Shown here piece by piece: positions 2,917-28,344 of a DNA stretch of 64,000 nucleotides. The notes under the pieces were generated by a model. It was not told where the DNA came from. It did no database searches and was given only the letters and a program-made list of their open reading frames with translations. Source of the stretch: Tubiluchus corallicola (taxonomy: Eukaryota; Animalia; Priapulida); the NCBI GenBank assembly GCA_030141605.1, contig JAQGDQ010000713.1:40486-104485 (forward strand), written 5' to 3'. The translations under genes were made by a program, and so were the position numbers. Every line of letters starts with the position of its first letter. Positions within the stretch are counted from its first letter, which is position 1.

Positions 2917-5900
2917 CTGTTGTTGTTGTTATAGAAACACTTAGTTCTAATATTATTGTAATGTAAATTACGGCGCTTTTTTTTTTGTACCACCCGATAT
3001 ATTATTTTGCATTTTCAGCACGTGCGCAACTGCATCGCCAAGAGCAAAATTCCCCAGCTGATGCTGATGAACAAGCGAGCTGTGATCGAACAAATTCCCA
3101 AGAACATCTTCACCCTGCCGTCGTTCGTGCGGCGGGGGCTGCCGACTCCCCGGAGCGACAAAACCATTTCCTTGTGGGAAATCGACTACCCGCTGCGGAT
3201 TAGGATACTGTGGGCCACCTACGTGAATGTGAAGGAACTAGATAGGGTATGCGTACTTGCTTATGATATCGTGCCTTATTTTTTATGTACCCATTTTTGT
3301 TATTATTTAAGTCGTATATGTGCTTAAATTAGTAATGCAGCAACTCAAAGTATGACTGACTCGCGAGGCGTGTAATCATAACACCAGTTTGTGAGACCAG
3401 TTTTGTAATCATCTCTCTTCTTCATCTTCTTCCCAGCTTTTCCCTATGAGTCTTCTCCACGCATTCCTGTTGTTGACCATCTCTTCATTTATGTCTTCCC
3501 TTCCATGTAATCATCTCTCTAGCACGTGAAAATTAGGAAAGCACGGTCTCTCGGGGACTCATCTTTCATTTCTTGTCAGATATATGTGTGTGCCGGCATT
3601 TACCATGGTAGAGAGACGCTGTACTCACAGTATGTAATGTTTCAGATATACGTACGCGCCGGCATTTCCCACGGTAGACTGACGCTGTACTCACAGTATT
3701 TAATGTTTCAGATATACGTACGTGCCGGCATTTACCATGGTAGAGAGACGCTCTACTCACAGTATTTAATGTTTCAGATATACGTACGTGCCGGCATTTA
3801 CCACGATAGACTGACGCTGTACTCACAGTATGTAATGTTTCAGATATACGTACGTGCCGGCATTTACCACGGTAGAGAGACGCTGTACTCGCAGTATGTA
3901 ATGTTTCAGATATACGTACGTGCCGGCATTTACCACGGTAGACTGACGCTGTACTCACAGTATGTAATGTTTCAGATATACGTACGTGCCGGCATTTACC
4001 ATGGTAGACTGACGCTGTACTCACAATATTTAATGTTTCAGATATACGTACATGCCGGCATTTACCACGGTAGACTGACGCTGTACTCACAGTATGTAAT
4101 GTTTCAGATATACGTACGCGCCGGCATTTACCACGGTAGACTGACGCTGTACTCACAGTATTTAATGTTTCAGATATACGTACGTGCCGGCATTTACCAC
4201 GGTAGAGAGACGCTCTACTCACAGTATTTAATGTTTCAGATATACGTACGTGCCGGCATTTACCACGGTAGACTGACGCTGTACTCACAGTATGTAATGT
4301 TTCAGATATACGTACGTGCCGGCATTTACCACGGTAGACTGACGCTGTACTCACAGTATTTAATGTTTCAGATATACGTACGCGCCGGCATTTACCACGG
4401 TAGAGAGACGCTGTACTCACAGTATTTAATGTTTCAGATATACGTACGCGCCGGCATTTACCACGGTAGAGAGACGCTGTACTCACAGTATGTAATGTTT
4501 CAGATATACGTACGTGCCGGCATTTACCACGGTAGACTGACGCTGTACTCACAGTATGTAATGTTTCAGATATACGTACGTGCCGGCATTTACCATGGTA
4601 GACTGACGCTGTACTCACAGTATGTAATGTTTCAGATATACGTACGTGCCGGCATTTACCATGGTAGAGAGACGCTCTGCTCACAGTATTTAATGTTTCA
4701 GATATACGTACGTGCCGGCATTTACCACGGTAGAGAGACGCTCTGCTCAAACTTGGATACACAGCAGGTTCTGTTTTCAAATCCAAAGTGGAACGAGTGG
4801 CTGCAGTTTGACCTGTTCGTTCTTGACCTCCCCCACAGCGCACGTCTCTCGCTGTCGCTGTGCTCGGTGTCGAAGTCAAAGAAGAAAGGAAAAGAGGTAA
4901 AGTTTATCACTTTACCGGATGAGCTCGTTTCTTGAATGTTCCGCGGTGTTTCCCGGGTCTTCTGGAAATTTACCGGAAAGAGAGAAATTTTTTCCGAAGT
5001 AAAGTTGTGTGGAAATGAGTTATGCCGTGTTTCGACAAACCTTAAACCAAACCCAGACCCAATCTTAAACTGTAGGTCAAAACAATCAACTTTTTAAAAT
5101 ATTGATAGGAAACATGCTATTTTTTCAAAAATGACTTGTGTGAAAGAATTATTACCACTAACCTGAGAAAGGTAGCTGACTTGATGACCAATTGGTCTTT
5201 CGCTGCCCTTTCTCCTGCACACCCCTAACTCTTTCCTTTATGCATAATTTATCCTTTTTAATTAATAACTATAACAATAATAGTCTATTTGTATACTATG
5301 GTGTAAATGAGGAGATAAATAAAATGTTTATGTCTATGTCTATGTCTCTTAGACTTTGTAAGCAAGCATATGTAAACACAGTTGTGTTCTAAAAGTAAAC
5401 ACATGCGTCGAGTCACAACGAAAAAGGAATACCTATATACCTCAGCAAAATAATATGTTAAACTGTAGGTAAAAAAACAATCTACTCTTTAACATATTGA
5501 AAGGAAACGAACTATTTTTTTCGGATATGACTTACGTGAAAGAATTATTACCACACAAACACTATTTCACGTTCGTGCTACTAGTTCTTCGCTGTTACGT
5601 GCATTTCGCCATTCGCTAGTTAGACAGGCGCTAGCACCTTTATTTTGGAAATGCATTACGCAAAAACGGGTACTGTACTTCTCAGTTCAGATGTGTTAGT
5701 TTGTGACGAACTGCTCACGTTCGACAACTCGTGCGCGAGCACAGCCATAAATTTGAAATGTGAATTTTTATCTTAAAATCTGCCTAGTTTTAGTACAGCA
5801 TCTTGAGTATCTTACAGGAGCACTGCACTTCAATTTTCGCTTTCACAAACACGTGCAACATGCTCTTAGAATATTTTTGCTGTTGAAAGTTATGTTAGTT

Positions 5901-11900: not shown

Positions 11901-12623
11901 AGGTTTGGTAAAGTTTGCTAAAAAAAACGTTTTGTCATTACGGTTGTGTTGAACTATGTGCAAATTTGGTTTGCAATAAATTTTCAACTTTTTCGAGGAT
12001 GACCCACTGAAAGAATTATTACCATACAAACACAATTTCACCTTCGCGCCACCAGTTCTTCGCTAATATATGTATTTCGCCTTTCGCTAGTTAGGCGGGC
12101 ACTGACACCTGTGTTTCGGAAACGCATTGCACAAAAAACCGGCGCTGCACCTTTCAGTTCAGTTGTGTTAGTTTGTGAGGAACTGCGGTAAATTTGAAAT
12201 TTGAATTTTTATCTTAAAACACGCCTAGTTTTAGTACAACACACTGAATATCTTACAGTAGCACTCCACTTCAATTTTTACTTTCACAAACACGTGCAAC
12301 TCGCTCGTGGAATATTTTTGCTGTTGAAAATTATGTTAGTTTGTGATGTCATCGATAGTTAGGCTCACCCTCTGTTAATTAAGTTTTTAATTTATTATTT
12401 AACTATCAGAAACGCTTTTGCAGTATTAATTGTGTTAAAACGTGTACTTTTTATCGGTCTTGAAAATGGGGTAGTGTATGAAAAGTCGCGTGATGACGAG
12501 CTTTAATTTAGTAACTTATTCTGGATTTTCTTTTCTCTAAGGCACAAGTGTTTGGACATTCCTAATTCGTTGCCACGGCTACTACATGTTGTCAAGTGGG
12601 AGAACAGGGACGATGTAACAGAG
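1084..12623 (+). CDS. PIK3CA: Class I PI3K catalytic subunit p110alpha-like, partial (7 internal exons: 1084-1232, 3019-3246, 4702-4896, 8514-8640, 10273-10445, 11721-11836, 12542-12623)
   Basis: AG/GT-bounded, phase-compatible exons translate to [19 protein letters not shown] / ..[13 protein letters not shown] / [41 protein letters not shown] / [32 protein letters not shown] / [14 protein letters not shown] / [15 protein letters not shown] / [19 protein letters not shown]. This is collinear with the p110alpha RBD-C2-helical sequence. The 5' exons lie before the window. Confidence 0.93.
1263..1528. repeat. Direct tandem duplication, ~133 bp x2
   Basis: atgttgtttta..gctgcagacgattgtttcgacatcaactgtc..aaattatatcat occurs twice in tandem. 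Confidence 0.8.
2667..2931. repeat. Compound trinucleotide microsatellite (TTA/TCA/TTG/CTG)n
   Basis: Directly visible; explains the poly-N and poly-L ORFs. Confidence 0.97.
3577..4748 (+). repeat. 66-bp tandem array, 18 units, each containing the splice acceptor and first ~15 codons of the PI3K C2 exon
   Basis: CAG|ATATA acceptor copies at 3580+66k up to 4702; a unit translates [22 protein letters not shown] (22 aa). Confidence 0.96.
5536..6045 (+). repeat. Dispersed repeat, copy 1 (homologous to ~12008-12484)
   Basis: Shared diverged sequence tgaaagaattattacca..cagttcag..aaatttgaaat..gaaacgcttttgc..atgaaaa in two PI3K introns. Confidence 0.75.
6820..7832. mobile_element. Foldback/MITE-like non-autonomous DNA transposon with modular internal repeats
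   Basis: Terminal inverted repeats tataggttttacatgtcaaatgtagac (6820) and gtctacatttgatgtgtaaaacctata (to 7832). The left arm has tcaaatgt modules. The right arm has acatttga modules in 60-bp and 42-bp tandem units. Confidence 0.8.
7840..8479. mobile_element. hAT-like MITE
   Basis: Imperfect TIR ctgtagcggat / atccgccgctg; 8-bp flanks ataatacc / ataatact (7/8 match) fit a target-site duplication. Confidence 0.6.
9254..9849. mobile_element. Tc1/mariner (pogo/Tigger-like) MITE
   Basis: TIR ccgtattttcccgtgtataagagaccc / gggtctcttatacatgggaaaatacgg, flanked on both sides by TA. Confidence 0.88.
10415..11630 (+). repeat. 41-bp tandem array (~29 units), each containing the PI3K exon end and donor site
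   Basis: Unit tgcaagctttgggtttgacaactgcacacagg|gtaagttct; GT at 10446, 10487, 10528 and onward. Confidence 0.96.
12008..12484 (+). repeat. Dispersed repeat, copy 2 (homologous to ~5536-6045)
   Basis: See copy 1. Confidence 0.75.
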
Positions 12624-12675
12624 GTAACTAGTGCAATAGTTACAATAACGTTTTTGTATAACTAAGTATAACAGT

Positions 12676-15530
12676 TTTAACTAACGTAATTTGTGTAACT
12701 GAGGTAACTACATGTAGTGTAACAGTTGTAATTAATGCAATTTGTGTAACTGAGAAAATCACGTGTTGCGTAACAGTTGTAATTAATGCAATTTGTTTAA
12801 CTGAGATAACTACATGTAGCGTAACAGTTGTAATTAATGCAATTTGTGTAACTGAGGTAACTACATGTAGCGTAACAGTTGTAATTAATGCAATTTGTGT
12901 AACTGAGTAAATCACATGTAGTGTAACAGTTGTTACTAATGTAATTTGTGCAACTGAGGTAACTACATGTAGCGTAACAGTTGTAATTAATGCAATTTGT
13001 GTAACTGAGTAAATCGCGTGTAGCGTAACTGGTGTTACTAATGTAATTTGTGCAACTGAGGTAACTACATGTAGTGTAACAGTTGTAATTAATGCAATTT
13101 GTGTAACTGAGTAAATCACGTGTAGTGTAACTGGTGTTACTAATGTAATTTGTGCAACTGAGGTAACAACATGTAGCATAACAGTTGTAATTAATGCAAT
13201 TTGTGTAACTGAGTAAATCACGTGTAGTGTAACTGGTGTTACTAATGTAATTTGTGCAACTGAGGTAACTACATGTAGTGTAACAGTTGTAATTAATGCA
13301 ATTTGTGTAACAGAGAAAATCGTGTGTAGTGTAACTGGTGTTACTAATGTAATTTGTGCAACTGAGGTAACAACATGTAGCGTAACAGTTGTAATTAATG
13401 CAATTTGTGTAACTGAGTAAATCACGTGTAGTGTAACTGGTGTTACTAATGTAATTTGTGCAACTGAGGTAACTACATGTAGTGTAACAGTTGTAATTAA
13501 TGCAATTTGTGTAACTGAGTAAATCACGTGTAGTGTAACTGGTGTTACTAATGTAATTTGTGCAACTGAGGTAACTACATGTAGTGTAACAGTTGTAATT
13601 AATGCAATTTGTGTAACTGAGTAAATCACGTGTAGTGTAACTGGTGTTACTAATGTAATTTGTGCAACTGAGGTAACTACATGTAGTGTAACAGTTGTAA
13701 TTAATGCAATTTGTGTAACTGAGTTAATCACGTGTAGTGTAACTGGTGTTACTAATGTAATTTGTGCAACTGAGGTAACTACATGTAGTGTAACAGTTGT
13801 AATTAATGCAATTTGTGTAACAGAGAAAATCATGTGTAGTGTAACTGTTGTTACTAATGTAATTTGTGCAACTGAGGTAACAACATGTAGCATAACAGTT
13901 GTAATTAATGCAATTTGTGTAACTGAGAAAATCATGTGTAGTGTAACTGGTGTTACTAATGTAATTTGTGCAACTGAGGTAACTACATGTAGTGTAACAG
14001 TTGTAATTAATGCAATTTGTGCAACTGAGTAAATCATGTGTAGTGTAACTGGTGTTACTAATGTAATTTGTGCAACTGAGGTAACTACATGTAGCGTAAC
14101 AGTTGTAATTAATGCAATTTGTGTAACTGAGTAAATCATGTGTAGTGTAACTGGTGTTACTAATGTAATTTGTGCAACTGAGGTAACTACATGTAGCATA
14201 ACAGTTGTAATTAATGCAATTTGTGTAACTGAGTAAATCACGTGTAGCGTAACTGGTGTTACTAATGTAATTTGTGCAACTGAGGTAACTACATGTAGCA
14301 TAACAGTTGTAATTAATGCAATTTGTGTAACTGAGTAAATCACGTGTAGTGTAACTGTTGTTACTAATGTAATTTGTGCAACTGAGGTAACAACATGTAG
14401 CGTAACAGTTGTAATTAATGCAATTTGTGTAACTGAGTAAATCATGTGTAGTGTAACTGGTGTTACTAATGTAATTTGTGCAACTGAGGTAACTACATGT
14501 AGCGTAACAGTTGTAATTAATGCAATTTGTGTAACTGAGTAAATCATGTGTAGTGTAACTGGTGTTACTAATGTAATTTGTGCAACTGAGGTAACAACAT
14601 GTAGCATAACAGTTGTAATTAATGCAATTTGTGTAACTGAGTAAATCACGTGTAGTGTAACTGGTGTTACTAATATAATTTGTGCAACTGAGGTAACTAC
14701 ATGTAGTGTAACAGTTGTAATTAATGCAATTTGTGTAACAGAGAAAATCATGTGTAGTGTAACTGGTGTTACTAATGTAATTTGTGCAACTGAGGTAACA
14801 ACATGTAGCGTAACAGTTGTAATTAATGCAATTTGTGTAACTGAGTAAATCACGTGTAGTGTAACTGGTGTTACTAATGTAATTTGTGCAACTGAGGTAA
14901 CTACATGTAGTGTAACAGTTGTAATTAATGCAATTTGTGTAACTGAGTAAATCACGTGTAGTGTAACTGGTGTTACTAATGTAATTTGTGCAACTGAGGT
15001 AACTACATGTAGTGTAACAGTTGTAATTAATGCAATTTGTGTAACTGAGTAAATCACGTGTAGTGTAACTGGTGTTACTAATGTAATTTGTGCAACTGAG
15101 GTAACTACATGTAGCATAACAGTTGTAATTAATGCAATTTGTGTAACTGAGTAAATCACGTGTAGTGTAACTGGTGTTACTAATGTAATTTGTGCAACTG
15201 AGGTAACTACATGTAGTGTAACAGTTGTAATTAATGCAATTTGTGTAACTGAGGTAACTACATATAGCGTAACAGTTGTTATTAATGCAATTTATGTAAC
15301 TCAGAAAATCACGTGTAGTGTAACTGGTGTTACTAATGTAATTTGTGCAACTGAAGTAACTACATGTAACATAACATTGTTACTAATGTAATTTGTGTAA
15401 CTGAAGTAACTAAATGTGACTGAAGTATCAGTTGTTACTAATGTAATTTGTGTAACTGAGAAAATCATGTGTATTGTAACAGTTGTTACTAATGTAATTT
15501 GTGTAACTGAAGTAACTAAATGTGACTGAA
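12676..15530. repeat. Minisatellite with a 96-bp higher-order unit made of two diverged 48-bp monomers (~29 dimers)
   Basis: Alternating ..gcaactgaggtaactacatgtag.. and ..gtaactgagtaaatcacgtgtag.. monomers; 32-aa period in the minus-strand ORF. Confidence 0.96.
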
Positions 15531-15880: not shown

Positions 15881-16812
15881 GTAATTTCAGTATGTTCAAG
15901 TCTATATTAATGTGCGGTAATGAATAAGGGTTGATTTTTCCTTTAATGCTCCATATGACTCTTTATTGTGTGGTAATTTCAGTATGTTTAAGTGTATATT
16001 AAAATACAGTAATGAATAAGGGTTGATTTTTCCTTTAATGCTTCTTATGGCTCTTTGTTGTGTGGTAATTTCAGTATGTTTAAGTGTATATTAAAATACA
16101 GTAATGAATAAGGGTTGATTTTTCCTTTAATGCTCCGTATGACTCTTTATTGTGTGGTAATTTCAGTATGTTTAAGTGTATATTAAAATACAGTAATGAA
16201 TAAGGGTTGATTTTTCCTTTAATGCTCCGTATGGCTCTTTGTTGTGTGGTAATTTCAGTATGTTTAAGTGTATATTAAAACACAGTAATGAATAAGGGTT
16301 GATTTTTCCTTTAATGCTCCATATGGCTGTATATTGTGTGGTAATTTCAGTATGTTTAAGTGTATTTTAAAATACAGTAATGAATAAGGGTTGATTTTTC
16401 CTTTAATGCTCCGTATGGCTGTATATTGTGTGGTAATTGCAGTATGTTTAAGTGTATATTAAAACACAGTAATGAATAAGGGTTGATTTTTCCTTTAATG
16501 CTCCATATGGCTGTATATTGTGTGGTAATTTCAGTATGTTTAAGTGTATATTAAAATACAGTAATGAATAAGGGTTGATTTTTCCTTTAATGCTTCTTAT
16601 GGCTCTTTATTGTGTGGTAATTTCAGTATGTTTAAGTGTATATTAAAACACAGTAATGAATAAGGGTTGATTTTTCCTTTAATGCTTCTTATGGCTGTAT
16701 ATTGTGTGGTAATTTCAGTATGTTTAAGTGTATATTAAAATACAGTAATGAATAAGGGTTGATTTTTCCTTTAATGCTCCGTATGGCTCTTTGTTGTATT
16801 GTAATTTCAGTA
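15881..16812. repeat. 92-bp tandem array, ~10 units
   Basis: gtaatgaataagggttgatttttcc recurs at 15917, 16009, 16101 ... 16745. Confidence 0.95.
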
Positions 16813-17509
16813 TTTTTATCGCTTAAAGCATTTACTAGATTGTTTGATAATTATTAGCACTTTTTCATAATTTTCAGTATTTCTATTTTTCACTAGACTT
16901 GACGTTTTGCAAAACCAACGAGGTAGACATTATATTTTCTAGAATTCATCCTATTTAACTTAGTTCGCGCAGAGCAATTTGAGCTTATAAAATTTTCTTA
17001 ACGGATGTTTGCATAAGCGGTATTTAAATTTGTTTTGCAAAGTTTGGAAGGTCTTATTTGCATTTCAAAACTTTTTTCCGAACTATAGTATAGGGCTAAT
17101 GATCTTTTTATGGTTGTGGAAGATGTCCACTCATTGGTTTACATTTTACATGGCTTTGCTGATCTTACAATGCCGGGAAGATGTCGTTTCGGATCATGTG
17201 AGAGCACCTTGGAAATGTGCCCAGCTCGATAGTCCATCTCATGGGACGGAGAACTCGTCACCGGCCGGGTAGGAACTTTATGCCAATAAACGGCATATTA
17301 ATATATAATGAATAATTATATATGAATGATAATAATGAATATTAACCTTAAACCACCTTCAGTAAAATAAAATGAAAAATAAACATTAGATACGAGAGAA
17401 AAGTATTGTCTAAACAACGTTCCCAAAGTTTATGGCAATACATATACATAGCTATGTAATTTCTTATTTAGCTTCTGCATTTTGTATATGTTGTTTATAA
17501 GAAACATTT

Positions 17510-18445: not shown

Positions 18446-19964
18446 GTATCAGAAGGGATTGGCTGTAGTGTAGTTAAAAATGGTTTGCCATAAAGTAGTT
18501 TCGAACTAGCTATCTTTGGAGTTGAGATGTCTGCTTGTTCCTACTGACGTCTGTCTTCACGAATCCATATTATATCAGTGAAGTCTTGAGTCTCCCTTAC
18601 TAAACATTTTTTGCTTTAATTGTATGCTTGATTATATGCTTTCAAGCTCATGCATTTAGGTAGCGTTTCATATAAATATGTCTCTCGGTGGTGGTGGATA
18701 GGCCTATATATAGTAGCAATGTGAAAAAATAATGTTTAAATTATATGATGTTTATTCTTCATAATTGTGCCTGATGTTTACTTTGCATTAAGGAATATTT
18801 AACGAAATTACTACATAGAATGGTAATTAGCAAGTTACAGGAGCGTGAGCCAGAAGGCAAAATTACATTATGGCTTATGACAGTGCCAGTAATGCAAACA
18901 GCCTAAACTCAAAACCTACTGTGAACACTGAAAATTGTCTAAGAAATTAATAATGTAAAAACAGTATTTCTAGAAATACGACCAGTAAAACACAACTAAA
19001 CGTGGAAGTAAAGAAATAGCAAAGACAGCAAAGACTTTGGCTAACCTGTTCCTGTTAATCTAGTATTTTGCTTTAGGTGGAAGTGGATTCTCTCAACTTC
19101 AGTGGTGTTTTATCATTTGCTTTGTCAAAATGTCCTAAAATCTTTTCAGTTGAGCATTAAGAAATTAATTATAAGCTGTATATGCCTTGTGGCACTATTC
19201 TTGCTGGCACAATCTGGCAGTAATTTTCGAATCAGAACCAGTATCAAAATCAGATGCACAGATATAGATTAATATACAGCTTCTGTTACTGAACTGTAAA
19301 CATAAAAAATGCATATCTGTCTACCAGAGGTGTAAATTTCAGCGAAACCAATAATGTAAGTATCACGATTTTAACTCTTAAATATATAATTTATTCAGCA
19401 AGGTGGCTTTGTGGCCACAGATTTGTGTTTCGGTCGGTTTTTGAAAAATTCTTAAATCTCCTGATTTCGACCATCACATTGAAATTAAGTGGAAAAAGCG
19501 GAAATTCAACTTGCATGCTAATTAAACTTTTTAAAAGATTATGCAAAAAATTCCACTGAGTCTCTGTTAATTAAGCTAACAGTAAACTTATTAAACTAAG
19601 TTTATAATCGGTTGCATAGCTTCATCATTTCACTCCATCTACATTTTGTGTCAATTTTTCCTGCATGATGGCAAATGCTGCAAAGCAAGTGTTCTTCCGC
19701 TTTAGCTTTATAATTTAGCTTTAAAGTTTTAGACTTTTAAGGCTTTTGGAATCTAAAATCAAGAATTTGTACTACTTTGTAGTTTGAATTTCTTGATTGT
19801 GGTTTCTGAGAAAGTCCTCATAAAACATTTAAAATGCAGTCATGCTTGGTTTCTAGGTCTCTGTCCTGGGGGAGCTTACAGCCCATCTAGCTAGGTCCTG
19901 ACTCCTGACTTCAGTTTGCGATAGGGTGGCAATCCTAATTCTAATTTGTGCTGCAGTAAGTAAT

Positions 19965-20518
19965 TGTAACGCAACGAAGTTAAGCAACGTAGAGCCTGGT
20001 TAGTACTTGGATGGGTGACATCCTAGGAATACCAGGTGCTGTAGGCTTGCGGGATGCCCACACTGTATCTCGACACTAGGCGGAGGAGCTGCACAAGCAG
20101 CCAACGGCTATAGGGCGGAGGAGGTCAAGTAACCCAACGGCCATGTGTAGAGGAGTAAACCTTCAAAATCAGGAATGGAGCCCCGAAGGCGGACCAGTGC
20201 AGCATGCTCACTGACTCCGGCAGCTCCTGCAGCTCCTGCAGCCAACCTTGTGCCAAACGCATCGCTGCGCTTTCCTTTGGACTACACTGGGGAGGAAAAG
20301 AGGGGGTTCCTGTTGTCTGGGCAACTCAGGATCTCCATACACTTTGCCCAGGCGTGCGCCCTGGAGACGTTCAAGTGCTCAGCCACAGTCGACGCTGCAG
20401 CTCCATTAATGTGATCAATAACTGACTCTCTTGGCGCACATTCCATTGTCTTCCGAGACAGAAGGATACCAACTGTCAAGGATTTTGTTTGTCAAATTTA
20501 GTATAGCTATAAGTTACA
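19965..20518 (+). mobile_element. 5S-headed element: either a SINE3-like element (ending ~20473) or a 5S-bearing LTR (TGTAAC...GTTACA)
   Basis: GC-rich island that starts with the 5S segment. Inverted ends TGTAAC (19965) and GTTACA (20513-20518) are followed by AG-TGGCGAC. Confidence 0.5.
19975..20048 (+). ncRNA. 5S rRNA-derived sequence (3' ~74 nt including the Pol III internal promoter boxes); part of a mobile element rather than a functional 5S gene
   Basis: cgaagttaagcaacgtagagcctggttagtacttggatgggtgac..ggaataccaggtgctgtaggctt matches the 3' two-thirds of animal 5S rRNA. The 5' ~46 nt and an oligo-T terminator are absent. Confidence 0.9.
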
Positions 20519-21041
20519 AGTGGCGACACCTGGCCTCAATAGTCGCTTCCTACAGAATTTCCGGTCATTTAGGTTTCAAGGTGTACATGTGGTGACGTGT
20601 CTGTGTGAACTCATGATTTAATGCCAACGATGTACGTAAATTTTATTTAGTCATTTATTTTATTTACTGTAAGCTTCTCATTAATTTAATCATATTCGAT
20701 GTTTTGGTAGAAATGAATCAGTTTATTAAAGAAATTTATATTTTATTTCAGATAAAATGTAATATTTTGGGATGAAGCAAATGACTACGGGGCATGTGCC
20801 ATGAAAATGGTACAAGCAATAAACAGTTATACTGAGCAAATGATGACTTTGTTTGTTTGTCTCCGTAAAGCCCAAGCAATTTTATATCGGCATTCGACAA
20901 TCCAGAGTGGACATTTTTATACAGTCAACATATGACCCAGATTGTGACCTACTTCTGGTTTAGCTACTGTTTCGCGTACATAGATTGACTTTTGTAGACA
21001 GGAGAAGTTATTTGGTCATGTTTAAAGTTGAACACACCTAA

Positions 21042-23390
21042 ATGATGTCGGACCAAACAACAAGGGAGAAATTAAAAAATACGACCCGTGATCAGCTGCG
21101 AGAAATGCTGCGGGCCAAACAACTGTCAGTTTCTGGTAGTAAAGAAGAGCTAATTCACAGACTCTTAGCAAGTCAGCAGAAACCAGATCATTCATATAAT
21201 GTGACGTCATGTGAAGCGTCTGGTACGTCGTCGTATGTTGATGCAGCTACAGCGACAGCGCAGCATCAAGTTGGCGAGCGCAGCCCTTCCAAAGCATCGT
21301 CAGGTGCTAGTCATTCGAAATCTACGAGACGGTCGAAGAAAAGTGCGAGGGAATTAAAGTTGCATGAGATTAAGATTCAGGAACAGGAGCTGAAATTAAA
21401 AGCAATGAAATTAAAACAGTTAAGACTTGAGAGTGAAGTTGCTTCACATAGCAGTGCAACCAGTCAGAAGTCGCGTACAACCGTCACCTCGCCTGAAATC
21501 AAGGACGAGACTTTAGCTAGGAAACCCATGTCAACCAAGGACAAGGTTACCGATTGGCTTCAAGGAGTGCGTGACGTCACCAAAGCCCAGTCATCAGACA
21601 CCAAGCCTGCAGTTCATCATACGTCTATGGAGGCCTATCTCACCATGGCAACGAACGACAGTTATGCTGAGGGAGTTCTTGTCTTGGCACACAGTCTGCG
21701 TCGAACTGGTACAACTCGACATCTAGCAATTTTGGTCACCCATACTGTTTCTAGCAGAGTTATGGCAGAGCTTAGTAATGTTTTTGATTATGTACAAATG
21801 ATTGATTTATTAAAGAGTAGTGATTTTGATAACTTGCATTTGCTAGGTAGGCCAGAGCTAAATGTAACATTCTCGAAATTGCACTGCTGGGCTATGACAC
21901 GGTTTACTAAATGCGTTTACTTAGATGCTGATACTTTAGTATTAGAAAATATTGATGAGCTATTTAATTATAATGAGCTTGCGGCTGCCCCAGATGTGGG
22001 GTGGCCTGATTGTTTTAATTCTGGTATGTTTGTATTTCAGCCTAGTTTGGAAACTTACAGTAGATTGTTGTCACTATCACAAACTGAGGCCTGTTCATTC
22101 GATGGCGGTGATCAGGGTTTATTAAATTTAGCCTTTCCGAACTGGAGTTCACAGTTTGACAAGCGCCTACCTTATGTGTATAATGCTGCCGTCCAAGGTC
22201 GTTACGGTTACCTGCCTACAATGAAGCAGTTCAGTAGCAAGATTAAAGTTGCGCACTTTTTAGGCCGAAAGAAGCCCTGGGATTATACTGAATATGTAAA
22301 CGGGGAGATCTCCGTCAATTTTTCGGACTTTGAATCAGGTTTTCTTCGTAGATGGTGGGATATCTATTTGTCTGATGTACAGCCCTTCTTCGAAAATTCT
22401 CCTAGTGAAGTTTTAGAACCTAGCGTTAAACAAACTACGTCGTTCTGCCGTGCCGCATTTAAATCACCCCAGGTAGAACAAACTTTAAATACTTCTGCAC
22501 GTGACTTCGTCCCAGGGAATATGCATCTTCCGCTTCCGGCTACATCGCCTCAGGCTTCTTATGGTAGCGGAGTTCAAAATAGTTCTAGGAATTTCTCTGG
22601 TAGGGCTAGTCAGAATGACATGAACGTTTTTATGGACCTCATGTTAGAAGGCCAAAGACAACACTTAAATATGTACAATGCTATGCAGCTTCCACACGTG
22701 CAGCTTGAAACGTTTGATGGTGACGTAATGAGGTTCTGGAGCTTTATCAAGCGTTTCGAAGCCAGCGTGGAGAACTATACCCAAGATGATGCAGCGAGGT
22801 ACACTAGGTTAGCCCAACTCTGCATTGGTAAAGCTAAAAGAGTTGTTGACAGTTGTAATTACATGGACCCCTGTTTTGCATATGGGCATGCTAAACAGCT
22901 TTTAACCGAAAGAGTCGGCTCGCCATTTGTTGTCACACAGGCCTGGCTTTCCAGAATTGCTGAATTTGAGCCCATAAAGATAAATGAGCCGGGAAAGTTA
23001 CAGGAATTTTCGGATTTGATTGTGGCTTGTGTGGAAACTTTGAAAATAATGAACAACGTTTGCGAAATTAGTACTCAATGCAGTTTGCTACAAATAATTA
23101 AAAAACTCCCATTCAAGTTCCAGGATAGGTGGAAGGATGTTGTAGCCAGGCTTCTGAAATATGAGCACAGGAATCCGACGATATTTGATGTAGTCGAATT
23201 CACTAAGGACGCAGCTGACAAAATGAATCATCCTGTCTTTGGCGACATTAACGTTAGCCTGCCTACCAGGAGCCCAAGAGGTAAACGCGACACTAAAGCC
23301 AGGAATTTCGCCAACTCAGCGCAGGAAACTGCGTCAATTACGAAATGCAACAGTGAACGACAACCCGGAAATACAACAAGGAAGTGGTAG
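21042..23390 (+). CDS. gag: Gag-like ORF: SAP domain, coiled coil, glycogenin GT8 domain, BEL/Pao Gag core
   Basis: SAP-like TRDQLREMLRAKQLSVSGSKEELIHRLL; GT8 domain from MEAYLTMATND to WWDIYLSDV; Gag core LPHVQLETFDGDVMRFWSFIKRFEASV..IIKKLPFKFQDRW..NHPVFG. Confidence 0.92.
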   Translation: MMSDQTTREKLKNTTRDQLREMLRAKQLSVSGSKEELIHRLLASQQKPDHSYNVTSCEASGTSSYVDAATATAQHQVGERSPSKASSGASHSKSTRRSKKSARELKLHEIKIQEQELKLKAMKLKQLRLESEVASHSSATSQKSRTTVTSPEIKDETLARKPMSTKDKVTDWLQGVRDVTKAQSSDTKPAVHHTSMEAYLTMATNDSYAEGVLVLAHSLRRTGTTRHLAILVTHTVSSRVMAELSNVFDYVQMIDLLKSSDFDNLHLLGRPELNVTFSKLHCWAMTRFTKCVYLDADTLVLENIDELFNYNELAAAPDVGWPDCFNSGMFVFQPSLETYSRLLSLSQTEACSFDGGDQGLLNLAFPNWSSQFDKRLPYVYNAAVQGRYGYLPTMKQFSSKIKVAHFLGRKKPWDYTEYVNGEISVNFSDFESGFLRRWWDIYLSDVQPFFENSPSEVLEPSVKQTTSFCRAAFKSPQVEQTLNTSARDFVPGNMHLPLPATSPQASYGSGVQNSSRNFSGRASQNDMNVFMDLMLEGQRQHLNMYNAMQLPHVQLETFDGDVMRFWSFIKRFEASVENYTQDDAARYTRLAQLCIGKAKRVVDSCNYMDPCFAYGHAKQLLTERVGSPFVVTQAWLSRIAEFEPIKINEPGKLQEFSDLIVACVETLKIMNNVCEISTQCSLLQIIKKLPFKFQDRWKDVVARLLKYEHRNPTIFDVVEFTKDAADKMNHPVFGDINVSLPTRSPRGKRDTKARNFANSAQETASITKCNSERQPGNTTRKW
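21627..22391 (+). CDS. GYG: Captured intronless glycogenin catalytic domain (GT8), in frame within Gag
   Basis: Motifs AYLTMATNDSYAEGVLVL, RPELNVTFSKLHCW, KCVYLDADTLVLENIDELF, ELAAAPDVGWPDCFNSG, SFDGGDQGLLN, LPYVYN, YGYLP, HFLGRKKPW and FLRRWW are collinear with animal glycogenin-1. Confidence 0.96.
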
Positions 23391-24633
23391 CAAAATGGCT
23401 TCTCAACGCCTAGAGATGCCTTGTTTTCTATGTAACTCTACGGAACACCGTTCACTCAAGCTATGCAATAAATTTAAGTCAATGAATGATACTGATAGAT
23501 TGAAAACCGCCAGAAGAGAAGGTCTTTGCTTCAATTGTTTGATTAAAGGAAAGCACAGGGCTTCTCGATGCTTCAAAGCAGGATGCGACGTAGAAGGATG
23601 CAGACGTAAGCATTCAAATTTACTGCATGCTGCCTTGGAGAAAATGTCACCTTCTAAAAACAATGATGAAAGCAAGGAGAAAAAAGCGCCAACACATTGC
23701 AAACCAGAGGCTTCTAGCAGTTGTGCTAGTATTAAGGAAGGCGGCAAAGCGGCTCTCCCTGTTGTCTCAGTTTTGGTTGAAGTTGATGGGAAGATGCCCG
23801 TGCGTACTTTAGCCCTACTTGACCCTGGCTCGACTAACACCTTTTGTACAAAGGCATTGTTCGACAAACTTGGGGCTACTAGACAAAAACGAACGCTCTC
23901 TTTAACCACTATAGAAGAGAAATATTCCAAGATAAACACTTTAATCACGAAGATGTCTGTTACTGGGGTAAACACTGGCAATAAAATAGCTTTGCCTTAT
24001 GTCTTCGTTAGGCCTGCATTGTTGCTGGAAAAGGACTGCTTGGCCTTTAGCAAGGATGTAGAACAATGGCCGCATTTGCAAGGAATCCCCCTATCGTTCA
24101 CAGATACAGAAGACCTAACTGAGCTGGGCCTTTTGATCGGCCAGGATGTTCCTGATGCGCTGATTCCTCTTGAGCTACGAACAGGTCCTAGACTAACGCC
24201 ATATGCTGTAAAGACAAAGCTAGGCTGGACCCTTAATGGACCCATAGGAGGCGGCGTTCCTAATTTAGGGCGCATTTGTAGTAATTTGACCCAAGCCAAT
24301 GCATTGTCATATGGAGAAACCAATTCCTTGCAGCAGCAAATAGAACAATTCTGGAAAATTGAAACTAGCGAGTTTGACAGACAATTCTTTTTAGACGATA
24401 TGCGTGCTCTCGATATATGGGAGGCTTCAATTACAAAAACACATGGGCATTACCAGTTGGACATCCCATTTAAATCTGAGAATGATGTTTTACCAGATAC
24501 GCTACAAATGGCTTCATCTAGATTGGAAAGTCTACGTAAACGGCTGCAGAGGAACCCAGAATTGCACAACCGATACACTATAGCTATAAATGACCTACCT
24601 ATTCAAGAAAGGATATGCAGAAGAGATCGATGA
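23239..24633 (+). CDS. BEL/Pao polyprotein segment: zinc knuckles and aspartic protease
   Basis: CFLCNSTEH..C, LCFNCLIKGKHRASRC, CDVEGCRRKHSNLLH; protease ALLDPGS and LLIGQD; PYAVKTKLGWTLNG. Confidence 0.92.
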   Translation: MATLTLACLPGAQEVNATLKPGISPTQRRKLRQLRNATVNDNPEIQQGSGSKMASQRLEMPCFLCNSTEHRSLKLCNKFKSMNDTDRLKTARREGLCFNCLIKGKHRASRCFKAGCDVEGCRRKHSNLLHAALEKMSPSKNNDESKEKKAPTHCKPEASSSCASIKEGGKAALPVVSVLVEVDGKMPVRTLALLDPGSTNTFCTKALFDKLGATRQKRTLSLTTIEEKYSKINTLITKMSVTGVNTGNKIALPYVFVRPALLLEKDCLAFSKDVEQWPHLQGIPLSFTDTEDLTELGLLIGQDVPDALIPLELRTGPRLTPYAVKTKLGWTLNGPIGGGVPNLGRICSNLTQANALSYGETNSLQQQIEQFWKIETSEFDRQFFLDDMRALDIWEASITKTHGHYQLDIPFKSENDVLPDTLQMASSRLESLRKRLQRNPELHNRYTIAINDLPIQERICRRDR

Positions 24634-27403
24634 AGATGATGACCCTACTTCCAGGAAATGGTTTTTTCCCCATTTTCCGGTGTTTAATGCCAATAAACCA
24701 GAGAAAACTCGCATCGTCTTTGATGCAGCAGCGGAAACAAATGAAGTATCTCTAAATAAATTAGCATTGCAAGGGCCAGATCTCACAAACACGTGCATTG
24801 GAGTTTTGCTTCGGTTTAGAGAGAATCCTATTGCAGTAATGGCGGATATCCGGGAGATGTTCCACCAGGTGATCGTGTCTCCAAAACACAGAAATATGAT
24901 GCGTTTCCTTTGGTGGAAAGATAGAAATCTTAACAGTCAACCATGTACTTTTAGAATGTGTGTACACTTGTTCGGCGGGGTGTGGTCCCCGAGCGTTGCA
25001 TCATTTGCTTTGCAAAGGACTGCAAAAGACAATGCAGATCTGTTTCCCGCAAATGTTGTCGCTACCATTTTGAGAAACTTCTATGTGGACGACCTTTTAA
25101 AATCGCTAAACACCGTGAATGAAGCCATACAGTTAGTTTCTCAACTGACTGCCTTATTGTCTCTTGGTGGATTCCACATAACTAAGTGGATGAGCAACAG
25201 ACGTGAGGTCTTGGCATCTGTGCCTGCTGAAGAACTTGGAAGCGAAGTCAAGAATCTTGACTTAACTCAGAGCCCTCTGCCAACTGATCGCGTACTGGGA
25301 GTTAAATGGCTAGTTGAGGAAGATTGCCTTGGAATCTTGGTTTCACTCAAAGACAAGCCCAGTACAAAACGAGGAATGTTAAGCTGCATTTCGTCAGTCT
25401 ATGACCCATTAGGAATGATCTGTCCATTCGTTTTGCAGGCCAAAAAACTCTTCCAAGATGAATGTAGAATTCAGAAAAAGGATTGGGATGACGCTCTAGA
25501 ACGAGATACAGAAGCCAAGTGGGCAAAGTGGAAAGGAGATTGTATCGCACTAGAAAACTTCAAGTTGGAGAGATGCATGAAGGCTCGTGATTTTGGCCTG
25601 ATTTTCCATTTGCAGTTGCATCATTTCTGCGATGCTTCGAGCTATGCTTATGGTACTGTCAGTTATGTACGTATGAAGAGTGCTCAAGGTGAAATTCACA
25701 CAGCATTCCTCATGGCTAAATCAAGACTTGCCCCACTTAAAGGTCTTACAATACCGCGTCTTGAACTCTGCGCTGCAGTTTTAGCCTCTAAAGTTGATCA
25801 AATGCTTAGGGAAGAGCTATCCTTTTGTGCTGGTACAGATCAGTCGGTCTTCTGGACTGATAGTCAGATAGTTATTCATTACATTCGGAACACAGCAAAG
25901 CGGTTTCATACATTCGTCCAAAACCGTGTCAACTCAATCTTGCAAGTCTCTTCACCAACTCAATGGCGGTTTGTTAGCTCAACAGACAACTGCGCTGATG
26001 ATGCGTCCCGAGGCATGAGCGCTGAAGAATTGCTACTTTCCAATAGATGGAAGTTTGTTCCATCTTTCTTAAGAAAAGATGAAGCTTCGTGGCCGCAGAC
26101 TAATTTAGATTCGGATGATATACTAGCTAATGACAAAGAAGTAAAGCGGTCAGCCACTGTGAACGTCGTAGAATGCAAAGGAACTTCAAATAATGTCATA
26201 GATCAATTGTTGCAGCATTACTCATCCTTTTACAGGCTAAAAAGAGGTTTAGCCTGGTTATTACGAGCCAAAACAATATTGCACAGGAAAGCTTCTGGCG
26301 GAAGTGATATGGATTGTTCCACAAATCTAACTCTGACTGAATTAAATGAGGCCCAGAATGAGCTGATCAGACACACACAGAAGCAAAGTTTCAACAAAGA
26401 ATATAAGACGATGTGTTCCCGTACCAAATCTACATGCCCAGAACGCTCTGTAACCAAATCATCCTGCCTGTATAAGCTGGATCCCTTTATTGATAAAGAG
26501 GGAATTTTGCGTGTCGGCGGTCGCCTGCAAGATGCTCTAGTAGATCATGAAGCTCGTCATCCTGTTATTCTTCCCAAAAATCATAGACTCTCTTGGCTTG
26601 TCATACAGCACTTCCACGAGACAAATGGACATACAGGTAGAGAACATGTCATGGCTTCAGTCCGTAGAGCGTTCTGGATAATTGGGATGCGAGTCATGGT
26701 GCGGAAAGTAATCCATGAATGCAGACAATGTAGGCTGCGTTACTCTCAACCATTGCAACAAAAGATGGCCAACTTGCCTCCTGAGAGAGTTCAACAAGGC
26801 TCCTTCTCTGCGGTTGGCGTGGACTGCTTTGGACCAATTTTGGTCAAACGTGGTAGAATCGAGGTGAAGCGTTATGGGGCACTCTTTACTTGTCTAGCCA
26901 CACGAAGCATCCACTTGGAGGTACTCTTCTCGATGTCTACAGATTCCTTCATTAAAGCACTCCATAGATTTTGTAGCAGAAGAGGCAAACCTAACAGAAT
27001 TAGGTCCGACTGTGGCACTAATTTTATAGGTGCCAACAAGCAACTTTCCAAGGCTATGAAAGAGTGGAATCACAACACTATTCAGAAAGACTTGCTCCAG
27101 GAGAACATCGAGTGGGAGAATAATCCGCCACGGGCTCCCCACATGGGAGGAGTATGGGAAGCAATGGTCAAGATTGTCAAGAAGCATTTGCTTTCTGTGA
27201 CAAATGAACAAGCTCTTGATGATGAAGCTCTCAACACTCTATTCTGCATTGTTGAAAACGTTGTCAATAGTAGGCCTTTAACGGCAACCTCGGACGACCC
27301 AAAAGATTGTAGTCCTCTGACGCCCAATCACCTGCTGTTGGCGAAGTGTTGGCGAAATTTATTACATATTTCTTTTCTCTCTAGTACAAACTACACACAC
27401 TAA
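24590..27403 (+). CDS. pol: BEL/Pao Pol segment: RT, RNase H, integrase (C-terminus truncated)
   Basis: KTRIVFDAA, LQGPDL, ADIREMFHQV, NFYVDDLL; HHFCDAS, TIPRLELCAA, FWTDS; integrase H..H..C..C zinc finger and DDE (VGVDCFG, RSDCG, VWEAM); recognisable homology ends at PLTPNHLLL. Confidence 0.95.
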   Translation: MTYLFKKGYAEEIDEDDDPTSRKWFFPHFPVFNANKPEKTRIVFDAAAETNEVSLNKLALQGPDLTNTCIGVLLRFRENPIAVMADIREMFHQVIVSPKHRNMMRFLWWKDRNLNSQPCTFRMCVHLFGGVWSPSVASFALQRTAKDNADLFPANVVATILRNFYVDDLLKSLNTVNEAIQLVSQLTALLSLGGFHITKWMSNRREVLASVPAEELGSEVKNLDLTQSPLPTDRVLGVKWLVEEDCLGILVSLKDKPSTKRGMLSCISSVYDPLGMICPFVLQAKKLFQDECRIQKKDWDDALERDTEAKWAKWKGDCIALENFKLERCMKARDFGLIFHLQLHHFCDASSYAYGTVSYVRMKSAQGEIHTAFLMAKSRLAPLKGLTIPRLELCAAVLASKVDQMLREELSFCAGTDQSVFWTDSQIVIHYIRNTAKRFHTFVQNRVNSILQVSSPTQWRFVSSTDNCADDASRGMSAEELLLSNRWKFVPSFLRKDEASWPQTNLDSDDILANDKEVKRSATVNVVECKGTSNNVIDQLLQHYSSFYRLKRGLAWLLRAKTILHRKASGGSDMDCSTNLTLTELNEAQNELIRHTQKQSFNKEYKTMCSRTKSTCPERSVTKSSCLYKLDPFIDKEGILRVGGRLQDALVDHEARHPVILPKNHRLSWLVIQHFHETNGHTGREHVMASVRRAFWIIGMRVMVRKVIHECRQCRLRYSQPLQQKMANLPPERVQQGSFSAVGVDCFGPILVKRGRIEVKRYGALFTCLATRSIHLEVLFSMSTDSFIKALHRFCSRRGKPNRIRSDCGTNFIGANKQLSKAMKEWNHNTIQKDLLQENIEWENNPPRAPHMGGVWEAMVKIVKKHLLSVTNEQALDDEALNTLFCIVENVVNSRPLTATSDDPKDCSPLTPNHLLLAKCWRNLLHISFLSSTNYTH

Positions 27404-28344
27404 CAAAGGTGCCACTTGCTGGTCGGCCACTGCTTTGCGATATGCTTCAGTACAACCTAAAGACATGTGCTCACACCTAGCATAACCTCTTTGGTTATCG
27501 CATTTCTTGGACCAATTTTTACATTGGTTTTCATAAGCATAATTTGGAAGTTGACAGCTATTATAGTGATATTCTTTTAATTTCTGTTTGAAGTCGGGGA
27601 GATGTTATATTTGTTTTATTTCACTGAATAGTGATTTCCATAAATTTATGGAATGATTTCATATGGAATGATTTCCAAATTTATTGTTTACTGTAATTTA
27701 ATTTAAACTGTGCATTGTATTGTTTCAAGAGATATCAGGAGTGGATGATAAAGTATTATTTAGAAATTGAATGCTCAGTTTACTCATAAAGAAATATTAA
27801 TGTTTTATTTGAGTTTTTTGTGGAAGGTTCTTAAATTTGTTGTAGAAGTGGCATGTTGTTTAGCAGACGGGGGGATATTAGCCATGTATTAGTCTAAATG
27901 CAGAATTTTGCATTGTATTTAGTTTTATATTTTATAAAGTTTTCTTTTTTTAACGTTTTGTAATAAAGTGCATCAGAAGTAACTAAAGTCTCTGAGACGT
28001 TACTTGGAAATGCAAAAAAAAAACTAAAAGTTTCATTGTTAAGAGTATTGTGGCGCGCCATCTGATGCAGCATAACTTGTTAAGTATTAATATTACAATT
28101 AAACAGAAGCGTGTTCAAAATTGTGCATTTGTGCATGTACTTTCTAGTTGTGAACAACACGAATTGGTGGCAGACAGGACAAGTCAATTAGAGCAAAACT
28201 TACAAGTCAAACTGAACTGCGGAGTTGCTAAGAATGTCATATTTTTGCATGGGACCAACGTCGCTTTTACTCGGAAGGTAAATTAATGTCGAGGTTTATA
28301 TAAAAGTGTTAAATAACTTAACGCTAAGTATTATTGTTAGGACA

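Follow-up and report, generated by a model that had tools for sequence, protein, structure and literature searches.

A glycogenin-derived catalytic domain in the Gag protein of a BEL/Pao retrotransposon from the priapulid Tubiluchus corallicola

Glycogenin initiates glycogen synthesis by adding glucose to itself. Whether a glycogenin domain can become a lasting part of a retrotransposon's Gag protein is the question raised by a stretch of 64,000 nucleotides from Tubiluchus corallicola, referred to as the window. On its forward strand, where all features of the element described below are located, an open reading frame (ORF) of 782 aa (21042..23390), shortened by a frameshift in this copy, encodes a Gag protein. 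The initial annotation had read this ORF as the junction of a SAP-like N-terminus, an intronless glycogenin and a BEL/Pao Gag core, a reading on which the ORF call, Pfam, PDB and alignments agree, the SAP and DUF1759 scores staying below their cut-offs.

Composition of the Gag protein

The SAP-like motif occupies Gag residues 15-42 (21084..21167; E=3.9e-4, 20.4 bits) and does not reach the Pfam cut-off of 23.9. Downstream of it lies an intronless glycogenin (GT8) catalytic domain comprising residues 196-450 (21627..22391), as defined by PDB and Pfam matches, conservation and alignment. The Pfam family Glyco_transf_8 covers residues 200-416 with 62.9 bits against a cut-off of 24.3, and GT8 is the sole Pfam domain of the Gag ORF above a curated cut-off. 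The best PDB matches of the insert are glycogenins, with an E-value of about 1e-82 for glycogenin-1, and the domain is nearest to glycogenins according to PDB and Pfam as well as its position on the animal side of both trees discussed below. Four full-length cellular glycogenins each align as a single block to 21630-22394; hence, the insert is devoid of introns and begins at about the first glycogenin codons.

The BEL/Pao Gag core, likely the capsid domain, spans 22713..23138. It is indicated by Pfam DUF1759 (residues 558-699; 23 bits, slightly below the cut-off of 25.4) and by matches to the plain BEL polyprotein P0223 (28% over 225 aa, E=3e-27) and to P0349 (70% over 102 aa), which derives from a 1-kb contig ending before the upstream part. 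A capsid-domain check of Gag gave an Atlas lead of 0.82, a PDB match to the core was not found, and the single-sequence AlphaFold model of Gag, with a mean pLDDT of 37, was not used. The motifs flanking the linker, matched by eye, are 313 residues apart in the window Gag compared with 17 in P0223, which places the insert in the variable linker upstream of the Gag core and bears out its earlier assignment to that position.

The active site of the domain appears in full in the alignment to glycogenin-1. The DXD motif D295-A-D297 (21924..21932) corresponds to D102/D104, and Tyr388 (22203..22205) aligns to the acceptor Tyr195. All 13 positions that were checked in the active site, at dimer contacts and at the acceptor are conserved (K279, D295, D297, D318, W321, N326, D354, D357, Q358, Y388, Y390, H405 and K411). 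Likewise, counterparts of the DXD motif and of K86, D125, N133, D160, D163, Q164, H212 and K218 of glycogenin-1, whose numbering follows from the alignment to PDB 1zct with the tag subtracted, are all present. On the other hand, the motif of the glycogen-synthase-binding tail, present in 207 of 359 fetched proteins, occurs in none of the six frames of the window. The insert thus represents the catalytic part of a glycogenin rather than the complete protein. Compared with glycogenin-1 (GYG1; PDB 1zct, 3t7m; PMC12267440, in excerpt), it shares the GT8 domain, the checked active-site residues and the acceptor tyrosine, while it lacks the synthase-binding C-terminus, is embedded in Gag, evolves faster, carries an additional residue at one marker site and lacks a residue at another.

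The surrounding element and further copies of the fusion

Six sequencing runs were listed, four of which contained over half of the sequence words and came from two studies, and the contigs of four of the six were compared with a floor of 80%. Since run X1 is possibly the window's own source, X3 and X5, the latter representing another sample and study under the same species label, carry the weight for the fusion. The 3' junction of the insert is bridged in X1 (record 3, depth 1,326) and X3, and the 5' junction in X3 (33 letters) and X5 (record 17), with at least 31 letters on either side in each case. Junction-bridging contigs thus come from three studies, which rules out an assembly chimera; the junction-spanning sequence that had been sought exists for both junctions, and the fusion, rather than being a single copy, is found in X1, X3 and X5 and occurs in diverged versions. 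In addition, X1 contig depth over the element, including the glycogenin part, is about 1,000-1,730, roughly fivefold the 190-350 or so of flanking or single-locus contigs, a sign of several copies, albeit depth is no copy number. An intact copy with paired LTRs was not seen among these contigs.

The initial annotation had also placed knuckles, protease, RT, RNase H and integrase after Gag. All of them were found, yet the copy is broken across three frames, which had gone unremarked. By motif reading, a triple Cys-His box (nucleocapsid) lies in a second frame at 23422..23628, with motifs at residues 66, 101 and 120 of that frame; the third is an exact CX2-4CX3HX4H, and in the first and the second the spacing exceeds by one residue that given in the excerpted text of PMC554778. 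It is followed by the aspartic protease motif LLDPGS (23815..23832; Pfam and motif reading) and by RT (YVDD at 25082), RNase H and integrase at 24590..27346, as identified by Peptidase_A17, RVT_1, Integrase_H2C2 and rve and by tblastn with P0223. The Pao family Peptidase_A17 (PF05380) reaches 149 bits against a cut-off of 22.3. The triple Cys-His box and the order PR-RT-RH-IN with LLDxG, YVDD and DAS, all found in the window element, are shared with BEL/Pao elements (Belpaoviridae, e.g. Sinbad; PMC554778, in excerpt; PMC8742986). Moreover, the acidic integrase residues are spaced by 61 and 49 residues (widened DDE spacing), and the 49 residues from the second Asp to the Glu are likewise a BEL/Pao feature. 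In contrast, PMC8742986 and the excerpted part of PMC554778 mention no glycosyltransferase, while the window element has one of 255 residues inside Gag; furthermore, the window copy is devoid of a 3' end and a second LTR.

The knuckles and protease are encoded by an ORF at 23227-24633, and RT, RNase H and integrase by one at 24590-27403, in two frames other than that of Gag, the window copy being frameshifted near 23,380 and 24,590. The window departs from contigs of X1, X3 and X5 at the first break and from those of X1 and X3 at the second; hence, both breaks look peculiar to the window copy. BEL homology (tblastn with P0223) ends at 27346, before the end of the integrase, and at 27347-27349 the contigs of X3 and X5 part from the window; here the element is truncated by an unrelated high-copy repeat of approximate boundaries and unassigned strand (27350..27800; summed X1 depth 53,000). 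With two frameshifts and a 3' truncation, the window copy is dead. A candidate 5' LTR with TG...CA ends was placed at 20474..20899, its boundaries inferred from end sequence and depth: summed X1 contig depth is 11,000-33,000 at 20617-20837 compared with 1,324 at 20956. The 64-kb window holds no second LTR as its partner, and a primer-binding site was not recognised by eye.

Directly before the element, and not part of it, lies a very high-copy repeat headed by 5S rRNA, likely a SINE (19949..20473, forward strand), based on Rfam and depth. The Rfam 5S match at 19949-20047 (E=1.4e-4) is under the gathering score, the summed contig depth rises up to 1.6e6, and loose contig ends occur at 19975 and 20473; the candidate LTR starts exactly at the 3' end of this likely 5S-derived SINE. 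Elsewhere in the window, tandem arrays of 51-nt and 92-nt units extend over 12563-15400 and 16200-16935, and a short exon-like stretch at about 4750-4935, after a tandem array, presumably resembles a PI3-kinase C2 domain. The host genes are rich in introns; one of them, at 36500-59140, encodes three or more WSC domains together with FN3 domains and part of a tyrosine phosphatase, and its product is likely a receptor-type phosphatase whose ectodomain is unusual.

Age, constraint and origin of the domain

The element domain shares about 50-55% identity with the best cellular glycogenins, compared with 64-75% among molluscan and annelid glycogenins. In trees of 312 and 34 domains, it occupies a long branch on the animal side (0.92 or 1.45 changes per site; SH-aLRT 94) without a supported sister; the GT8 tree proposed with the original observation thus puts it far from cellular glycogenins. 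Taken together, identity and branch length make the capture look old and the domain constrained. As for the donor, a grouping with molluscs or annelids fits best (p-AU 0.54). A fungal donor, considered on account of a few shared motifs, is disfavoured by the tree tests, yet Mucoromycota are not rejected (p-AU 0.12).

A host-type glycogenin is carried by a contig of X6, a run of the same species label and, by guess, of RNA. In a comparison by hand, 10 of 20 visible codons encode the same residue in the element and in this gene, and 7 of those 10 differ silently; hence, the insert is not a fresh processed copy of the X6 gene, and the near-identity to a host glycogenin mRNA that would have spoken for a chance insertion is not observed. 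The X6 contigs do not cover the element, and no RNA data set was listed as containing it, which says nothing on its expression.

Conservation within the domain is distinctly uneven. It keeps 46 of 51 near-invariant columns compared with 17 of 74 variable ones, and two of the five departures are absent from the deep X1/X3 contigs. At the 90% level, 72 of 84 conserved columns are kept against a cellular median of 83, and only 4 of 265 cellular proteins are as low. These patterns point to a constraint that is real but relaxed.

The more diverged X5 contigs extend this comparison: 41 of 53 compared X5 records are less than 90% alike to the window. Record 17, which covers only the first 80 codons of the domain and the linker, with 2 gap letters, differs at 11.7%, the Gag core at 11.3% and the other six X5 records at 10.4-17.3%. 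Among the 12 listed X5-only differences in Pol, 7 are silent compared with 27% expected by chance (p=0.02). The silent-site divergence derived from Pol, a rough value that rests on these 12 listed sites with 7 silent, is about 29%; an unconstrained insert should hence differ more than record 17 does. Within the domain, 4 differences and two length variants are listed, the latter of 12 and 3 letters and both in frame. A second X5 contig, at window 22093-22136, encodes another glycogenin whose divergence is far greater, 8 of 19 visible residues being identical. It has both length markers of the element's domain, a combination shared by 1 of the 301 proteins that could be scored and by none of 66 such loci, and could belong to another BEL family or to a host paralogue.

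Fused relatives were found neither among the 120 listed of 282 protein matches, nor among 103 long protein matches (102 glycogenin-like, 1 plain BEL), the best 150 of 8,049 protein matches or 11 short matches. Five matches starting internally (P0228, P0240, P0245, P0280 and P0132) are cellular glycogenins with N-terminal extensions, and another protein, P0224, is a glycogenin fused to FHL-type LIM domains. None of 24 candidates in a metagenome scan carried the fusion, and BEL sequence was absent from the best 80 of 439 metagenome glycogenin loci, most of which are short and transcript-like. Five viral contigs (L081-L085) encode distant GT8 proteins of 21-29% identity, with no BEL sequence nearby. 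The Atlas gave no usable match for the whole fusion protein, and searches for glyco- words in the accessible text of four retrotransposon papers returned no such domain. A glycogenin-Gag fusion was not found in the literature surveyed, the scope of which leaves Repbase, Dfam, GyDB, subscription journals and supplements as places that may hold an unannotated entry. The Gag architecture is real and, within the literature and sequence collections surveyed, apparently undescribed.

Related cases of captured sequence are known, each differing in key respects. In the Ty3/Gypsy elements of Phalaenopsis, an AlkB m6A demethylase (PMC9289625, in excerpt) is likewise an enzyme of host origin that has become fixed in a lineage of LTR elements, where its cofactor-binding residues are conserved, and serves as the model for a selected cargo; it is a separate ORF with an RNA substrate and demonstrated activity, unlike the predicted in-frame sugar transferase of the window element, which belongs to another superfamily. 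The Burro elements of planarians (PMC6431247, in excerpt) similarly contain host-like domains in frame in the Gag-Pol polyprotein, yet they are giant Gypsy elements with the domains after Gag, and the excerpted description names no glycosyltransferase. Baculovirus p13 (PMC4133818, in excerpt) is also a GT8-family glycosyltransferase of an animal virus, albeit encoded by a stand-alone gene of a large DNA virus and without any fusion to a capsid protein. The LTR-mediated retrocopies described by Tan et al. (2016, PMC5131818, in excerpt) resemble the insert as intronless host coding sequences, in frame, within discontinuous LTR-element sequence; in contrast, they are young and near their parents, while the window insert has diverged far from the host-type gene, within an element that retains all its own genes. 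The fusion thus apparently works like other captured accessory enzymes, representing a new class of cargo in a new position.

Predicted function and significance

The initial annotation's view of a retro-captured enzyme kept as Gag cargo gains support from the bridged junctions, the diverged versions and the distance to the host-type gene, its mRNA origin being inferred. That the domain is a selected cargo of the element is, from these sequence comparisons, probable. We further consider it fairly likely that an old capture from spliced mRNA has been followed by selection for a domain predicted to make Gag glucosylate itself, and we hold the prediction of catalytic activity of the domain on itself with the same moderate confidence.

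The proposed sequence of events would start with the capture of a spliced glycogenin mRNA by template switching during reverse transcription. Gag molecules would subsequently pair via their glycogenin domains and use UDP-glucose to build a short alpha-1,4 glucose chain on Tyr388, the counterpart of Y195, the acceptor in glycogenin-1, where Y197, D160 and W128 form inter-subunit contacts and the C-terminal domain binds the synthase (PMC12267440, in excerpt). In the solved capsid of the belpaovirid Atlas virus, the N-terminus of the capsid protein faces outwards and a folded domain can be attached to it (bioRxiv 10.64898/2026.03.22.711591, in excerpt); hence, the glycogenin domain would be exposed on the surface of immature particles, at least as long as Gag has not been cleaved by the protease. 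Glycogen synthase would not be recruited by the usual route, as its binding tail is missing, so that short primers would be favoured over glycogen granules or full glycogen decoration. In the least certain step, the chains may link particles to host glycogen-binding proteins or stores and thereby aid persistence or localisation in germline cytoplasm. A glyco-capsid in the full sense, in which every Gag glucosylates itself and the particles, covered with glycogen primers, are treated by the host like glycogen granules, hidden from its surveillance and brought into the glycogen-rich cytoplasm of oocytes, is a tentative and rather doubtful extension of this sequence-based model. A decoy role involving TRIM7, a vertebrate protein that binds the glycogenin C-terminus, was dropped because this C-terminus is absent from the element.

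Three other readings have to be weighed against self-glucosylation. The domain might be selected for a different purpose, serving as a dimer assembly module, as a tether to sugar or UDP-glucose, or as an enzyme that glucosylates another protein. Relaxed constraint relative to cellular glycogenins and the retained inter-subunit contacts Y197, D160 and W128 would suit such a role, as would the example of human GYG2, which retains the tyrosine but shows hardly any self-glucosylation, a deficiency linked to the C loop (PMC12267440, in excerpt), where the element family varies in length; the GYG2 case thus calls for caution regarding the activity of the element domain. Nevertheless, the survival of DXD, the other checked active-site positions and the acceptor tyrosine over a very long divergence exceeds what a purely structural role would require, and this reading is unlikely. 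It is also improbable that the insert is a tolerated passenger, i.e. a fast-evolving host paralogue of glycogenin picked up fairly recently whose conservation predates the capture. The second, highly diverged X5 glycogenin could be such a paralogue, and animals commonly carry young retrocopies in frame within LTR elements (PMC5131818, in excerpt). Against it stands the X5 junction contig, which diverges no faster than the Gag core or Pol; moreover, in a simple simulation the insert had acquired no stop codon in 43 of 1000 runs when 0.12 changes per site were allowed, and in 3 of 1000 at 0.3, an argument that holds only if the 12% variant is open domain-wide, and selection for an open frame alone would not keep divergence down.

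Finally, the chimera might have been domesticated by the host as an extra glycogen primer or scaffold for the animal, and domesticated Gag genes fused to host genes do exist (Crtg10 and Crtg14; PMC8321522, in excerpt). Such a fate is highly improbable, given that protease, RT, RNase H and integrase accompany the fusion and are covered by deep as well as diverged contigs, that the window copy is decaying, with X5 leaving the outer flank bins uncovered, and that the synthase-binding tail is missing. Predicted self-glucosylation of Gag by a selected domain hence remains the preferred reading.

In general, fixed accessory enzymes are rare in LTR retrotransposons, and those in the literature surveyed act mostly on nucleic acids or nucleotides, while the particle biology of BEL/Pao elements is barely known (ICTV profile, PMC8742986). 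Glycogenin expansions in some snails have been cited as an adaptation to aestivation (bioRxiv 10.1101/2025.10.31.685756, in excerpt); an element-type copy was not found among the fetched named snail proteins, and reported expansions of the glycogenin family in invertebrates deserve a check for transposon-borne copies. A self-glucosylating primer within Gag would connect the particles of a retrotransposon with carbohydrate metabolism and hint at a so far unrecognised host pressure on their survival or localisation, and an element that makes a full glyco-capsid would be the first retroelement to glycosylate its own capsid protein by a built-in enzyme.
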